Below are positions 3,798 to 9,275 of a stretch of DNA of 12,366 nucleotides, piece after piece. This DNA comes from a virus: UHGV virus genome UHGV-0221207; one strand, given 5' to 3'. The notes beneath the pieces were generated by a model. That model was not told the origin of the DNA and did not search any database. It worked only from the letters and a program-made list of their open reading frames with translations. The position numbers and the translations under genes are program-made. Numbering within the stretch: position 1 is the first letter of the stretch; each line of letters opens with the position of its first letter.

Positions 3798-4395
3798 TCT
3801 GCTGCCACCGGGTTCAACTTCACTGGAGCGCCGACTGGCGCAAACCTGTAGCGGGATTTCTGATCTGCAGGTGCCGCTGCGTGACTTGTGGAATCCGGCT
3901 ACCTGTCCGGTCAGCTTCCTGCCTTATCTCGCCTGGGCGTTCTCTGTGGATCGCTGGGACGAGGGCTGGACAGAAAGCGTCAAACGCCAGGTAGTGAAGG
4001 ATGCTTTTTATATTCATCAGCATAAAGGAACTACCAGTGCCGTGCGGCGGGTGGTGGAACCGTTCGGATTCCTGATCCGCATTATTGAGTGGTGGCAGAC
4101 CGGAGAAACACCGGGCACGTTTCGCCTGGATATCGGCGTGCAGGACCAGGGCATCACTGAAGATACCTATCTGGAACTTGAGCGGCTGATAAGCGATGCC
4201 AAACCATGTAGCCGTCACATGATCGGCATGTCCATCAATCTGCAGACCAGCGGTCCGCATTGGGTGGGGGCCGCCAGCTATCTTGGCGAAGAAATCACGA
4301 TCTATCCGTATATCAACGAAACAATTATTTCCGGCGGCACCGCGCATGAAGGCGGGGCGGTCCATGTTATTGACACAATGAGAGTGAATCCATGA
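3790..4395 (+). CDS. I: Baseplate protein I (tail-fibre attachment)
   Basis: Motifs LWNPATCPVSFLPYLAWAFSVDRWDEGW, RRVVEPFGFL and GTFRLDIGV parallel P2 gpI as recalled. ATG overlaps the J stop, and TGA at 4393-4395 overlaps the H start. Confidence 0.8.
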   Translation: MNSLLPPGSTSLERRLAQTCSGISDLQVPLRDLWNPATCPVSFLPYLAWAFSVDRWDEGWTESVKRQVVKDAFYIHQHKGTTSAVRRVVEPFGFLIRIIEWWQTGETPGTFRLDIGVQDQGITEDTYLELERLISDAKPCSRHMIGMSINLQTSGPHWVGAASYLGEEITIYPYINETIISGGTAHEGGAVHVIDTMRVNP

Positions 4396-5798
4396 GCACA
4401 AAATTTTATACCCTGCTGACGGATATTGGCGCGGCGAAACTTGCCAGCGCCGCCGCGCTCGGTGTGCCGCTAAAAATTACCCATATGGCGGTGGGCGATG
4501 GCGGCGGAACATTGCCAACGCCGGACGCCAAGCAGACAGCATTGGTAAATGAGAAACGCCGGGCTGCGCTGAATATGCTCTATATCGACCCGCAGAACAG
4601 CAGCCAGATTATTGCTGAACAGGTGATCCCTGAAAACGAGGGCGGTTGGTGGATACGTGAAGTGGGCCTGTTTGATGAGTCCGGGGCATTGATTGCCGTG
4701 GGCAACTGCCCGGAAAGCTATAAGCCGCAACTGGCTGAAGGCAGCGGGCGTACCCAGACCGTGCGCATGGTGCTGATTACCAGCAGCACGGACAATATCA
4801 CCCTGAAAATCGACCCTGCCGTAGTGCTGGCAACCCGCAAGTATGTGGATGACAAGGTACTGGAGCTGAAGGTGTACGTGGATGATCAGATGGCAAAACA
4901 TCTTGCCGCACCGGACCCGCATTCACAGTATGCACCCAAAGAAAGTCCGACGTTTACCGGGACACCAAAAGCGCCAACTCCAGCGGCAGGGAATAACACC
5001 ACGCAGGTTGCGACCACCGCGTTTGTTCAGGCGGCACTGACGGCTCTTATTAATGGTGCGCCAGCCACGCTGGACACGCTGAAAGAAATAGCCGCAGCCA
5101 TTAACAATGATCCGAATTTCAGTACCACCATTAACAATGCGCTGGCACTGAAAGCGCCGTTGTCGAGTCCGGCACTCACCGGAACGCCAACAGCCCCCAC
5201 TGCTGCACAGTCGGTCAACAATACACAGATTGCCACCACGGCTTTTGTGAAATCGGCGATTGCAGCAATGGTAGGTTCTGCACCTGCGGCACTGGATACA
5301 CTGAACGAACTGGCGTCGGCGTTGGGGAATGATCCGAACTTTGCCACGACAATGCTTAATGCGCTGGCAGGTAAACAACCGCTGGACAATACGCTGACTA
5401 ATTTGAGTGGAAAGGATGTCGCTGGTCTTCTCGCATACCTTGGTTTGGGAGAAGCGGCGAAAAGGGATGTGGGCACAGGAGATAATCAGATACCGGATAT
5501 GGGAGCATTCGCTTCTGGTTCGGGATGGTTCAGGCTACCAGGTGGATATATTGTTCAGTTTGGCACTTTTTCAGGAAACACGACCCGCTTTATCAGTGGA
5601 CACTTCCCTATACCATTCCCTAATCAGCCGATGGTTTCAGTCAGTGTTATGTCTGATGCCGTTCAGTCAGACCCGTCGAATCCTGCCACGCAGGTTTTGT
5701 CTGTAAATTTTGAACATATCAGTAATTCAGCGTGGCGTGTGGCAACCAGTGATATCTCACAGCAATACAGATTCAGTTATATTTCGATAGGACGGTAG
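4392..5798 (+). CDS. H: Tail fibre protein H, current orientation (constant N-terminal ~350 aa plus variable C-terminal receptor-binding end)
   Basis: N-terminus MSTKFYTLLTDIGAAKLASAAALGVPLKITHMAVGDGGG... is the conserved P2-H/Mu-S type fibre N-domain. A tandem shaft repeat follows. The reading frame crosses the inversion crossover site at the GLGE codons (about 5440). TAG at 5796-5798. Confidence 0.85.
   Translation: MSTKFYTLLTDIGAAKLASAAALGVPLKITHMAVGDGGGTLPTPDAKQTALVNEKRRAALNMLYIDPQNSSQIIAEQVIPENEGGWWIREVGLFDESGALIAVGNCPESYKPQLAEGSGRTQTVRMVLITSSTDNITLKIDPAVVLATRKYVDDKVLELKVYVDDQMAKHLAAPDPHSQYAPKESPTFTGTPKAPTPAAGNNTTQVATTAFVQAALTALINGAPATLDTLKEIAAAINNDPNFSTTINNALALKAPLSSPALTGTPTAPTAAQSVNNTQIATTAFVKSAIAAMVGSAPAALDTLNELASALGNDPNFATTMLNALAGKQPLDNTLTNLSGKDVAGLLAYLGLGEAAKRDVGTGDNQIPDMGAFASGSGWFRLPGGYIVQFGTFSGNTTRFISGHFPIPFPNQPMVSVSVMSDAVQSDPSNPATQVLSVNFEHISNSAWRVATSDISQQYRFSYISIGR
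4944..5387 (+). repeat. Tandem in-frame repeat (2 x ~222 bp, ~74 aa units) in the fibre shaft
   Basis: Unit 1 SPTFTGTPKAPTPAAGNNTTQVATTAFVQAAL...NDPNFSTTINNALALKAP and unit 2 SPALTGTPTAPTAAQSVNNTQIATTAFVKSAI...NDPNFATTMLNALAGKQP align colinearly with many identities. Confidence 0.7.
5428..5453. repeat. Left inversion crossover site (gix/hix-like 26-bp imperfect palindrome)
   Basis: TTCTCGCATACC-TT-GGTTTGGGAGAA. The half-sites resemble the Gin/Hin consensus (TTATCnAAAACC / GGTTTnnGGATAA). The right half is identical to the inverted partner at 7313-7338. Confidence 0.75.
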
Positions 5799-5800
5799 AA

Positions 5801-6241
5801 ATGCAGAAATATATTTTCAGTGCCGATAAAAATGCGTTTTTCCCTGTGGAGCTTAAAATCGCTTATCAGGAATCCGGCGAATGGCCCGATGATGGAATCG
5901 AAATTGACGACACTGTTGCCGCCGAATTTATGAAGGAAGCACCAGAAGGAAAATACAGAGGTGTCATCGACGGAATGCCTGCATGGATTGATATTCCACC
6001 GCCAACTCATGAGGAACAAATTGCCGCAGCCGAATTGGAAAAGCAGCAATTGATTAATCAGGTCAACGAATACATAAACAGTAAGCAATGGCCTGGTAAA
6101 GCGGCGATTGGTCGTCTGAAAGGTGAGGAACTGGCGCAATATAATTTATGGCTAGATTATCTGGACGCACTGGAACTGGTTGATTCCTCCAGTGCTCCAG
6201 ATATTGAATGGCCTACGCCTCCGGCAGTTCAGGCCAGATGA
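5801..6241 (+). CDS. G: Tail fibre assembly chaperone (Tfa) G
   Basis: 146-aa ORF starting 3 nt after the H stop. C-terminal tail ...LDYLDALELVDSSSAPDIEWPTPP is Tfa-like. Position matches P2 G. Confidence 0.8.
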   Translation: MQKYIFSADKNAFFPVELKIAYQESGEWPDDGIEIDDTVAAEFMKEAPEGKYRGVIDGMPAWIDIPPPTHEEQIAAAELEKQQLINQVNEYINSKQWPGKAAIGRLKGEELAQYNLWLDYLDALELVDSSSAPDIEWPTPPAVQAR

Positions 6242-6815
6242 CATCCGGTGCGGTGCTGGTATCTGTTGCCGTCACCGCGTCAATGTAATCCAGCACGGCG
6301 TTAAGTCGGGTGTTTTCTGGCTGCGTCAGCTTCCGCCCGGCCCGTAATTTCAGTTGAATCAGACTGATGGAAGCCATTGCAGCATCAATCAGCGACTGGC
6401 GCTGTGCTTCTGCCGCGTCTACTGCGGCACTATGCTGTGCCTCAGTATCTGTCACCCATTTCTCACCATTCCATTCATCGTATGGCGTTAACGGGGCGAT
6501 AGTGGTTGTATTTTCAGGATAATCACCCGGAGCTGTGATTTCTTTCGATTCTCCTGTTTCGGTGCTATAGACGATTTCACCGCGATGGTCTGGCACATAT
6601 TCCCATGAATTTAAATCTACAGAGCGACAGATTGCATAACCAGCTTTATGTGTACCTGGTGCATCCAAACAAGAACATGCCGGAATACCGACGCCGACAG
6701 CGAGATATTCAGTTGATGTAGAAATATATTCACGCGTTTCACCATCATAGTTATAAACAGTAATATTTCCTGCCTGGGTGGCGATAAACTCGTTATTTAA
6801 TACGGCGTAATCCAT
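6213..6815 (-). CDS. Alternative tail fibre assembly chaperone (Tfa'), silent in this orientation
   Basis: 200-aa ORF. Its C-terminus ...LDYIDAVTATDTSTAPDVIWPELPEA parallels that of G. Its start overlaps the stop of the alternative fibre end (TAATG). It converges on G with a 29-bp overlap. Confidence 0.75.
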   Translation of the reverse strand: MDYAVLNNEFIATQAGNITVYNYDGETREYISTSTEYLAVGVGIPACSCLDAPGTHKAGYAICRSVDLNSWEYVPDHRGEIVYSTETGESKEITAPGDYPENTTTIAPLTPYDEWNGEKWVTDTEAQHSAAVDAAEAQRQSLIDAAMASISLIQLKLRAGRKLTQPENTRLNAVLDYIDAVTATDTSTAPDVIWPELPEA

Positions 6816-7366
6816 TATGCAGCCCTCACGATATACGCAAATGCCAGGTTCCGTGGTCTGGTTTCTTTAATTAAAGAGGAGGCATCAGGTGAACTCACTG
6901 ATTCAGCACCATTTCTTCCACCAGTTGTATAAGTAAAAACTCTTTCACTGTTAGACCAGTAATCCACACCAACTGTTTTTGCTGATGAAAAAATGGTTTC
7001 ATCAGATATAACCTGTTCTATTCCATACGGGATATTAGTAACTGACCCCACTTTTGTAGGTATTCCATGATTATGAGAAATTACTGCATGCTCTTGATTC
7101 GTTAATAAAGTACGACCGCTATCCACTCCACGCCCGTCATCCCAGCCACGAATAAATTCACCGCGTAAATCAGGCAATTTATTTGTCGGATAAACCTTTG
7201 CCAGTTCCGGGTATTCTTCAGCAGAAAAAGCCGCACCGTTGCATTTCAGCCAGCCAGTAGGCGGTGTGGCTGAAGGCCACGGAACAGGCACACCAACGGG
7301 TAATGCCGAACCTTCTCCCAAACCAACATTTATGAAAATGCAGAGATAACGGCTAACTGGCATCAT
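6815..7366 (-). CDS. Alternative tail-fibre C-terminal cassette (H'), promoterless; joins the H N-terminus only after inversion
   Basis: The frame reads ...INVGLGEGSALPVGVPVPWPSATPPTGWLKCNGAAFSAEEYPELAKVYP... and ends ...NLAFAYIVRAA, resembling the C-terminal end of P2 H / Mu S type fibres. The GLGE codons coincide with the crossover site. The first ~13 codons (7327-7366) lie outside the segment and are probably not a genuine N-terminus. Confidence 0.7.
   Translation of the reverse strand: MMPVSRYLCIFINVGLGEGSALPVGVPVPWPSATPPTGWLKCNGAAFSAEEYPELAKVYPTNKLPDLRGEFIRGWDDGRGVDSGRTLLTNQEHAVISHNHGIPTKVGSVTNIPYGIEQVISDETIFSSAKTVGVDYWSNSERVFTYTTGGRNGAESVSSPDASSLIKETRPRNLAFAYIVRAA
7313..7338. repeat. 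Right inversion crossover site (inverted partner of 5428-5453)
   Basis: Top strand TTCTCCCAAACC-AA-CATTTATGAAAA. Its reverse complement TTTTCATAAATG-TT-GGTTTGGGAGAA shares 15 contiguous nt (TTGGTTTGGGAGAAG) with the left site in inverted orientation. Confidence 0.75.
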
Positions 7367-7387
7367 CTCCGGTTTTTATTCAGGGGG

Positions 7388-7960
7388 ATGATCATGCTTA
7401 TTGGCTATGTACGCGTGTCAACAAATGACCAGAACACCGATTTGCAACGTAATGCACTGAACTGCGCGGGATGTGAGCGGATTTTTGAGGATAAAATCAG
7501 TGGCACTAAGTCCGACAGACCGGGGCTGAAAAAGCTGCTCAGGACACTATCGGCAGGAGACACGCTGGTTGTCTGGAAGCTGGACAGGTTGGGGCGCAGT
7601 ATGCGGCATCTTGTTACGCTGATAGAGGAGTTGCGCCAGCGTGGTGTGAATTTCCGAAGCCTGACTGACAGTATTGATACCAGTACCCCAATGGGCCGTT
7701 TCTTTTTTCATGTCATGGGTGCCCTGGCTGAAATGGAACGCGAACTGATAGTTGAACGTACCAGGGCAGGGCTGGCTGCAGCTCGTGCCAAAGGCAGAGT
7801 AGGTGGACGCCGTCCTAAGTTGACCACCGAACAGTGGGCACAGATTGGGCGTTTACTCGAGGCCGGAGAATCAAGACAGCGTATTGCACTGATTTTTGAT
7901 GTGGGTGTTTCCACAATTTATAGAAAATTTCCGGCAAATAAGAGTAATGAATCCCCCTGA
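7388..7960 (+). CDS. Serine DNA invertase (Gin/Hin/Cin/Pin family)
   Basis: MLIGYVRVSTNDQNTDLQRNAL...VVWKLDRLGRSM...FRSLTDSIDTSTPMGRFFFHVMGALAEMERELI...GRRPKL... is near-identical in motif content to Gin/Hin as recalled, including the catalytic Ser in RVSTNDQ and a C-terminal helix-turn-helix. The start is probably the second ATG at 7394. The gene begins ~50 bp beyond the right crossover site. Confidence 0.9.
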   Translation: MIMLIGYVRVSTNDQNTDLQRNALNCAGCERIFEDKISGTKSDRPGLKKLLRTLSAGDTLVVWKLDRLGRSMRHLVTLIEELRQRGVNFRSLTDSIDTSTPMGRFFFHVMGALAEMERELIVERTRAGLAAARAKGRVGGRRPKLTTEQWAQIGRLLEAGESRQRIALIFDVGVSTIYRKFPANKSNESP

Positions 7961-8008
7961 ATCAGCATTATTTTGATTATCCCTGCAAGTAGACAAATAC
8001 CGTCATTT

Positions 8009-8026
8009 TGTGTGAATAACGGTACA
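8009..8026 (+). promoter_or_regulatory. Probable P2-type late promoter activator site (TGT-N12-ACA) for the FI operon
   Basis: TGT 8009-8011, 12-nt spacer, ACA 8024-8026, centred ~85 nt upstream of the FI ATG. A CACAAT -10-like hexamer lies about 25 nt downstream and AGGAGG at 8088-8093. Confidence 0.4.
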
Positions 8027-8102
8027 ACTGCGCTTAGCTGTTTGTCAGGCACAATCACTTCAACATAGGGCGAAGCCTAATCCAATCAGGAGGTTCGCCA
8101 CT

Positions 8103-9275
8103 ATGGCTCAGGATTACCACCACGGGGTGCGCGTTGTTGAAGTCAACGAAGGCACCCGATCCATTACCACGGTGAGCACCGCCATCGTGGGCATGGTCTG
8201 CACGGGCGATGATGCCGATGCAAAAATGTTTCCTCTTAACAAACCTGTGCTGATCACTGATGTGCTGACTGCCAGCGGTAAAGCGGGTGAGTCCGGCACG
8301 CTGGCCCGTTCGCTGGATGCCATCGCTGACCAGGCAAAACCCGTGACCGTTGTTGTGCGTGTGCCGCAGGGTGAAACGGAAGAAGAAACCACGACCAATA
8401 TCATCGGCGCAGTGACTGCTGAAGGTAAAAAAACAGGCATGAAAGCTCTGTTATCTGCCCAGTCACAGCTCGGCGTTAAACCGCGCATTCTCGGCGTGCC
8501 AGGTCACGATAACAAAGCCGTTGCGACTGAGTTGCTGAGCGTGGCGCAAAGCCTGCGTGGGTTTGCTTACCTGTCAGCGTATGGCTGCAAGACGGTACAG
8601 GAGGCGATCACTTACCGTGAAAACTTCAGCCAGCGCGAAGGAATGCTGATCTGGCCCGACTTTACTGGCTGGGACACGGTGCTGAATGCCGAAGCAACGG
8701 CATATGCCACCGCCCGTGCACTTGGTCTGCGTGCCAAAATTGATGAGCAGACCGGGTGGCACAAAAGCCTGTCCAACGTGGGCGTGAACGGTGTCACCGG
8801 AATTTCTGCAGATGTGTTCTGGGATCTGCAGGACCCGGCAACCGATGCAGGTCTGCTGAACCAGAACGACGTCACCACGCTTGTGCGTAAAGACGGTTTC
8901 CGCTTCTGGGGTTCCCGCTGTCTGAGCGATGATCCGCTTTTTGCCTTCGAAAACTACACCCGCACGGCGCAGGTGCTGACGGACACAATGGCAGAAGCAC
9001 ACATGTGGGCGGTGGATAAACCGCTTAACCCGTCGCTGGCCCGCGACATTATCGAAGGTATCCGCGCCAAAATACGCAGCCTGGTCAGTCAGGGCTATCT
9101 CATTGGTGGTGATTGCTGGCTGGATGAGTCGGTGAACGACAAAGACACGCTGAAAGCCGGAAAACTCACCATCGACTATGACTACACGCCAGTGCCGCCA
9201 CTTGAAAATCTGATGCTGCGCCAGCGCATCACCGATCAGTACCTGGTGAATTTCGCCAGCCAGGTCAGCGCGTAA
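8103..9275 (+). CDS. FI: Contractile tail sheath protein FI
   Basis: [33 protein letters not shown]... and ...[21 protein letters not shown]... parallel P2 gpFI as recalled. 390 aa. Strong RBS. Confidence 0.9.

Follow-up and report, generated by a model that had tools for sequence, protein, structure and literature searches.

Invertible tail-fibre segments are a known and documented kind of system, and the reaction behind them is understood from the biochemistry of Gin and Hin: a Fis-assisted invertase cuts its sites at a central dinucleotide, rotates the ends by 180 degrees and religates them. In the G segment of phage Mu (S-U / U'-S' / gin), the sites are 26 bp long with an AAACC core half-site, and the annotated boundaries, at 31,966 and 35,025, enclose ~3.06 kb. 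The C segment of P1 and Min of p15B, the latter a multi-inversion system, share the mechanism and layout of the locus described here, as does Mu. Invertible fibre segments are also known in P2-like prophages of EPEC E2348/69 and in carotovoricin Er, where coexisting orientations were found by sequencing and PCR (PMC4272514, citing Nguyen et al. 2001), and a multi-inversion system has been reported in a P2-like prophage of EPEC (PMC4272514). Likened by description, these are the same kind of switch on the same kind of element as ours. Closest of all is the P segment of the e14 element of E. coli K-12 (stfP-tfaP / tfaE-stfE / pinE). Inversion of the e14 segment, and of those in P2-like prophages, has been shown experimentally by sequencing and PCR (PMC4272514; for e14 also PMC12529663).

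The DNA analysed here (the window, 12,366 nucleotides or 12.4 kb) is a metagenome contig, the consensus of which can display a single orientation only; all its genes correspond to those in the first 12.4 kb of a 16.2-kb contig, k119_62618, of the ENA metagenome assembly ERZ27263625. It carries the tail module of a P2-like (Peduoviridae-type) prophage, with R, S, V, W, J and I preceding the fibre gene H and the sheath, tube, E/E' and tape measure genes lying past a serine recombinase gene. The region in between (Table 1) is very probably a two-state, Pin-type invertible tail-fibre segment of the Hin/Gin/Cin/Pin family, in which the fibre tip is swapped between two unrelated ends. Between its two crossover sites lie two convergent cassettes, and each pairs a variable C-terminal fibre part with an assembly protein of its own. 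Near-identical loci are present and annotated in public genomes, and the best match to the fibre region among complete E. coli genomes stands at 95.8%.

Table 1. Features of the invertible fibre segment and its surroundings, in window coordinates.
Feature	Position	Strand	Pfam match or motif	Residues identical to e14 StfE	GC fraction
Tail-fibre gene H as assembled	4392-5798	+			
Constant part of H (aa 1-349), P2 H-like	4392-5439	+	Phage_tail_fib (PF12571), 2.6e-65		
Left 26-bp crossover site (pixL-like)	5428-5453		central dinucleotide 5440-5441		
Expressed variable fibre end, gp53-like / R-pyocin-like, predicted lectin-fold C-terminal domain	5455-5798	+	Gp53-like_C (PF21882)		
Tail-fibre assembly protein of the expressed end (146 aa, TfaP-like)	5801-6241	+	Caudo_TAP, 2.5e-34		
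Silent tail-fibre assembly protein (200 aa, TfaE-like)	6213-6815	-	Caudo_TAP, 8.9e-32		
Reverse fibre-end ORF	6815-7366	-			
Silent variable fibre end, collar-type (StfE / T4 gp37-like), AT-rich divergent middle	6815-7311	-	Collar		
Silent end, N-terminal collar part		-		64/67	0.54
Silent end, middle	6866-7111	-		17/86 (20%)	0.36
Silent end, C-terminal part		-		14/16	0.54
Right 26-bp crossover site (pixR-like)	7313-7338		central dinucleotide 7325-7326		
Serine DNA invertase (Pin/Gin family), 188 aa from the MLIGYVRVST start at 7394	7388/7394-7960	+	Resolvase, 2.3e-53; HTH_7, 1.5e-15		
Candidate Fis-dependent recombinational enhancer inside the invertase gene	7416-7478	+	degenerate motif matches 7416-7430, 7464-7478		

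The module is a copy of the e14 P segment, fused here to the N-terminus of a P2-type H. The five genes have the same order and orientation in both, the crossover sites are near-identical, and the pairing of ends is the same, with StfP belonging to Gp53-like_C and StfE to Collar. Identity to the e14 proteins is 85-87% for the invertase (full-length alignment), 90% for TfaE, 58% overall for StfE and 56% for TfaP, the last over 124 aligned residues (query residues 25-146). In the window and in e14 alike, the tfa genes share 29 nt at their 3' ends. The setting differs: whereas e14 is a defective lambdoid element, the window segment sits on a full P2-type H N-terminus within an apparently complete P2-like tail module. 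The middle of the collar-type end has been replaced relative to StfE, and a BLASTP comparison of the whole window H with StfP aligned only the LGLGE junction, leaving the kinship of the two gp53-like ends at the Pfam level only.

The two crossover sites are marked by a perfect 15-bp inverted repeat (5440-5454 and 7312-7326), for which we estimate a chance expectation of ~0.007 in 3.8 kb. Of the 16 bases in the e14 repeat as published, TTGGTTTGGGAGAAGG (PMC12529663), it matches 15, and it encodes the GLGE motif common to both fibre ends; the site in H falls inside the conserved LGLGE codons. The left and right 26-bp sites are identical over a 12-bp half-site and the AA core (14 bp). As the reverse complement, the left one reads TTCTCCCAAACC-AA-GGTATGCGAGAA, compared with TTCTCCCAAACC-AA-GGTTTTCGAGAG in e14; the right one reads TTCTCCCAAACC-AA-CATTTATGAAAA, one base away from TTCTCCCAAACC-AA-CGTTTATGAAAA of e14 pixR, and the conserved half-sites show zero or one base difference from e14 each. 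The second site is inverted, adjoins an intact serine invertase gene and lies ~1,885 bp downstream of the first, which makes the segment slightly longer than that of e14 (1,797 bp) and ~1.2 kb shorter than the Mu G segment. Further crossover sites, as expected of a multi-inversion system, were sought throughout the window and none was found; as there are only two, we take the switch to have two states. When the segment is inverted in silico, the constant 349 residues join in frame to GSALPVGVPVPW...IVRAA, giving an uninterrupted 519-aa fibre followed by the 200-aa Tfa. Inversion swaps the C-terminus of H in frame, and each end comes with its own Caudo_TAP assembly protein.

The constant part ties the locus to phage P2. 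Window H is 49% identical to the N-terminal 350 residues of P2 H, the homology breaking off at the YLGL junction, and the gene occupies the same position in the V-W-J-I-H-G operon. Unlike the window, P2 has neither an invertible segment nor an invertase, and its H C-terminus (280 residues; Phage_fiber_2 and Gp34_trimer) is like neither end here. A C-terminus of the P2 H type, whether sought as P2 H residues ~388-669 or as the Phage_fiber_2/Gp34_trimer domains, is absent from both window ends.

Elsewhere in the P2-like backbone, an AT-rich minus-strand ORF (1342-1911, 176-189 aa, ~31% GC compared with ~55% around it) lies between the tail genes S and V, in the slot taken by the non-essential orf30 in phage P2. 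It matches phrog_18838, a family of unknown function, and gave no match to Pfam or PADLOC. Its homologues form only 12 clusters, those with a named source being from Enterobacterales; it is missing in a closely related prophage (L005) and replaced by a different gene in the same slot in the prophage locus of E. coli bR_120_Kylling. The ORF looks like variable cargo at a third P2 hotspot.

The end that is silent in the assembled orientation is of the collar type. Its minus-strand ORF reads ...INVGLGEGSALPVGVPVPWPSATPPTGWLKCNGAAFSAEEYPELAKVYP...NLAFAYIVRAA and matches Collar (PF07484) with 56.0 bits (gathering cut-off 24; 4e-15). In the PDB it finds a short tail fibre (9CUY, 7e-17), the T4 gp37 tip (2XGF, 1e-14), in a match that includes the ...NIAFNYIVRLA ending, and also gp12; among phage records it finds 753, lambda stf and T4-like distal fibre genes included. 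The combination of an N-terminal collar domain with a C-terminal ...N(I/L)AF.YIVR.A ending is the one seen in the T4 gp37 tip, T4 gp12 and lambda Stf. Unlike that group, the silent end has a single HxH motif (SHNHG), and the stretch between the collar-forming parts is far longer in gp37 than here.

The closest named relative of the silent end is StfE of e14, and the similarity is unevenly spread (Table 1). With flanks that are 88-96% identical to StfE, the middle is, as judged by alignment, a swapped tip module within a conserved collar frame. This middle is found, at no less than 95% identity, in 48 of the 5,426 complete E. coli genomes (~0.9%). In gp37, the collar is built by both ends of the chain, and the distal tip comes from the part between them; by analogy, the AT-rich middle of the collar end is probably the distal, receptor-contacting specificity module.

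The end that is expressed in the assembly, where H encodes a 468-aa fibre ending ...FEHISNSAWRVATSDISQQYRFSYISIGR, falls into a different curated Pfam family, Gp53-like_C (34.1 bits; gathering cut-off 24.9), and has 469 relatives at the 50%-cluster level. A phmmer search of the PDB with this end alone returned nothing significant. A profile built from 17 of its diverse relatives matched gp53 of phage AP22 (4MTM, 1.5e-7) and the R1/R2 pyocin fibres 6CXB (7e-7), 6CT8, 6CL5 and 6CL6, with all hits between E values of 1.5e-7 and 1.7e-5. An AlphaFold2 model of the end reached a moderate pLDDT of 78, as a monomer where the solved homologues are trimers; the best four Foldseek matches to it were R1/R2 pyocin fibres (E 1e-5 to 7e-5), followed by sugar-binding lectins. 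In the description of the pyocin fibres, the corresponding domain is a lectin-like beta-sandwich at the fibre tip, with the SLL-2, Helix pomatia agglutinin and discoidin families as structural neighbours (PMC6116203). Profile matches and the predicted fold together indicate that the tip expressed here is of a known type, already characterised by structure determination, and that it is a homologue of the lectin-like C-terminal domain in the R1/R2 pyocin fibres and in AP22 gp53.

Identity over the structural alignments is only ~17-24%, and the window fibre lacks both the knob and the shaft of the pyocin fibre. R pyocins of Pseudomonas aeruginosa bear this tip type on P2-like contractile tails. 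Pyocin fibres are not known to be switched by inversion. Going by the fold and by R pyocins, for which LPS core sugars are cited as part of the receptor sites (PMC6116203), the probable ligand of the lectin-like end is a sugar of the cell surface, LPS core for example; in one study, AP22 gp53 itself gave no inhibition of infection (bioRxiv 10.1101/518761). The exact receptor target is not readable from sequence, a point on which the initial annotation was right.

The two types of end differ in how widely they are distributed. Relatives of the expressed end appear in 50 phage records, compared with the 753 of the silent end, and this gp53-like end is fused to the H constant part in 30 E. coli genomes, compared with 417 for collar-type ends. 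The same gp53-like end, at 99% protein identity and in the silent orientation, is found in the Klebsiella phages Kp48xx (OK490395.1 and related), which are induced Klebsiella pneumoniae phages; the cassette is thus common to E. coli and Klebsiella prophages.

That the two ends are not homologues belonging to one receptor-binding family, as the initial annotation had supposed, is borne out: they show no similarity to each other by BLASTP (E 7.1) and belong to different Pfam families. The peptides it quoted are likewise present, at the positions it gave, in the reverse fibre-end ORF and in H. Homology searches with each end therefore upheld its view of two unrelated families, but the identities it gave them did not hold, the silent end being of the StfE/gp37/lambda Stf collar type and not of the P2 H/Mu S type. 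By BLASTP, the silent end has only a marginal 26%-identity, 88-aa piece in common with P2 H (E 0.006 for a single comparison) and nothing with Mu S or Mu S' (E 32 and 2.2). Pfam finds no Collar domain in P2 H, Mu S or Mu S'; Mu S (Gp34_trimer, Phage_fiber_2) and Mu S' (gp37_C) belong to families other than the Collar and Gp53-like_C of the window ends. As these direct comparisons revealed no real similarity, the supposed resemblance to P2 H and Mu S was rejected. Nor can the expressed end be called a divergent, non-canonical variant, given that it has a curated Pfam family of its own and solved R-pyocin homologues, and that its fold, as predicted for a monomer, matches the R1/R2 pyocin fibres best.

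The machinery for inversion appears to be in place. The invertase is 74% identical to Gin in full-length alignment, has the conserved Ser9 and is identical to PinE and Gin in its N-terminal catalytic region. The gene contains two matches to a weak, degenerate Fis motif (~1 match per 128 positions), 48 bp from each other at +23 and +71, and the homologous pinE and gin keep both at the same gene positions. From its sequence, the pair is consistent with the known geometry of an enhancer, which is short of proof that it is one. The nearer match is ~97 bp from the right crossover site. Separately, a perfect 12-bp inverted repeat (7378-7389 and 7951-7962; ATTCAGGGGGAT / ATCCCCCTGAAT) closely brackets the invertase ORF; with ~0.4 such pairs expected by chance in 3.8 kb by our estimate, it may be meaningless.

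Relatives of the locus are found in both orientations. A query of 3,286 nt, composed of the constant part, the segment and the invertase, was matched over at least 80% of its length by 25 complete E. coli genomes in the orientation of the window and by 25 in the flipped one, with 94-96% identity among the matches listed. Annotation of the flipped loci gives a fibre of the tail-collar type, a pair of tfa genes, a gp53-like ORF and a recombinase. Among the close relatives of the expressed end listed from the protein database, the majority are ORFs of 131-132 aa, which is the length of the gp53-like end when it is in the silent position. The claim that the prophage is locked in one fibre state is accordingly not supported: a metagenome contig is one assembly path, and its single orientation is therefore uninformative on locking, while the invertase and both sites are intact, the flip is in frame and the relatives divide 25:25.

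A switch that is present but dead here, through a defective enhancer, promoter or invertase residue, would leave the fibre frozen with its gp53-like end. The one orientation displayed by the contig fits this idea, and decay is known in relatives, as in CP019275.1, the nearest phage-collection record, which has a frameshifted invertase. We nevertheless consider it unlikely, as the window invertase ORF is full length, close to the active PinE and unchanged in its N-terminal catalytic region, both sites retain the 14-bp half-site and core exactly, and the candidate Fis sites are conserved. Pin-type invertases elsewhere in the cell can, moreover, act in trans on such sites, the e14 segment being inverted by each of PinQ, PinR and PinE (PMC12529663).

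Two related records deserve mention in their own right. CP019275.1 (E. coli p13P477T-2) is a 37.4-kb circular 'plasmid' record with a P2-like tail module and the same segment, and could represent either a phage-plasmid or an excised prophage, with a truly disabled switch. In E. coli bR_120_Kylling (NZ_CP182374.1, 2,120,000-2,165,000), the left halves of two P2-like prophages meet head-to-head exactly at the fibre segment (junction at 20640-24400 of that locus), in the order H with a collar end, the 200-aa tfa, the reversed 146-aa tfa, a 394-aa H, I, J and onwards, with no invertase between. The arrangement has the appearance of a large inversion of the chromosome in which two prophages recombined via their fibre crossover sites, unless it is a misassembly.

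A different role for the ORF in the silent position would be to encode a fibre-tip protein that is made on its own, blocks surface receptors and protects the lysogen against other phages, as reported for the e14 chimera StfE2. An ATG is retained in this ORF, its 17-codon leader resembles the one in e14 stfE (MMPVSRYLCIFINVGLGE compared with MPFACYFFIFINVGLGE), the equivalent 131-132-aa ORF is annotated in many genomes, and such activity has been reported for a gp53-like chimera in K-12 (NAR 2025, PMC12529663). However, the stretch that encodes the leader coincides with the crossover site and with sequence upstream of the invertase gene, and can therefore have been conserved for reasons other than coding. 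A promoter and terminator scan of 5300-8200 gave nothing usefully above shuffle expectation and no promoter-like site immediately upstream of the start of the silent ORF, the sole minus-strand match lying beyond the invertase gene (7996-7967). In K-12, no protection came from the StfE-type protein, which is the form that this orientation carries (PMC12529663). We therefore hold this role to be very unlikely; if it were true, the switch would toggle a host-defence phenotype besides virion host range.

The initial reading taken as a whole, with a canonical P2 H/Mu S-type silent end, a divergent expressed end and a locked prophage, is barely credible, for although the wider spread of the collar family does make the silent end look more familiar, comparing that end with the C-termini of P2 H, Mu S and Mu S' gives no significant similarity and different Pfam domains, the expressed end has its curated family and solved homologues in fibres of R pyocins with P2-like tails, and the components of the switch are intact with relatives in both orientations.

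For the two-state, Pin-type switch that we favour, the course of events can be proposed from Gin and Hin. Bound to the two sites and aided by Fis at an enhancer within the gene that encodes them, invertase dimers would cleave the DNA at the central AA dinucleotide, turn the half-sites by 180 degrees and religate them. Inversion would change which C-terminus, with its matching Tfa, comes after the constant part. The assembled orientation would yield a 468-aa fibre with a lectin-like beta-sandwich tip (Gp53-like_C, as in the R1/R2 pyocin fibres, AP22 gp53 and e14 StfP), and the other a 519-aa fibre whose tip is of the collar type known from e14 StfE, T4 gp37 and lambda Stf and includes an HxH motif as well as the divergent, AT-rich stretch in its middle. 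A population of lysogens would then be expected to release virions of two host specificities.

Beyond correct annotation, the significance of the locus is slight. The proper label is a Pin/e14-type invertible fibre segment that carries one gp53-like end (R-pyocin-like, lectin-fold) and one collar-type end (StfE/gp37), and a label such as 'P2-H-like versus divergent' is to be avoided. The orientation found in an assembly, above all a metagenomic one, tells nothing of a fixed state, and predictions of host range for such prophages need to consider both forms of the fibre.
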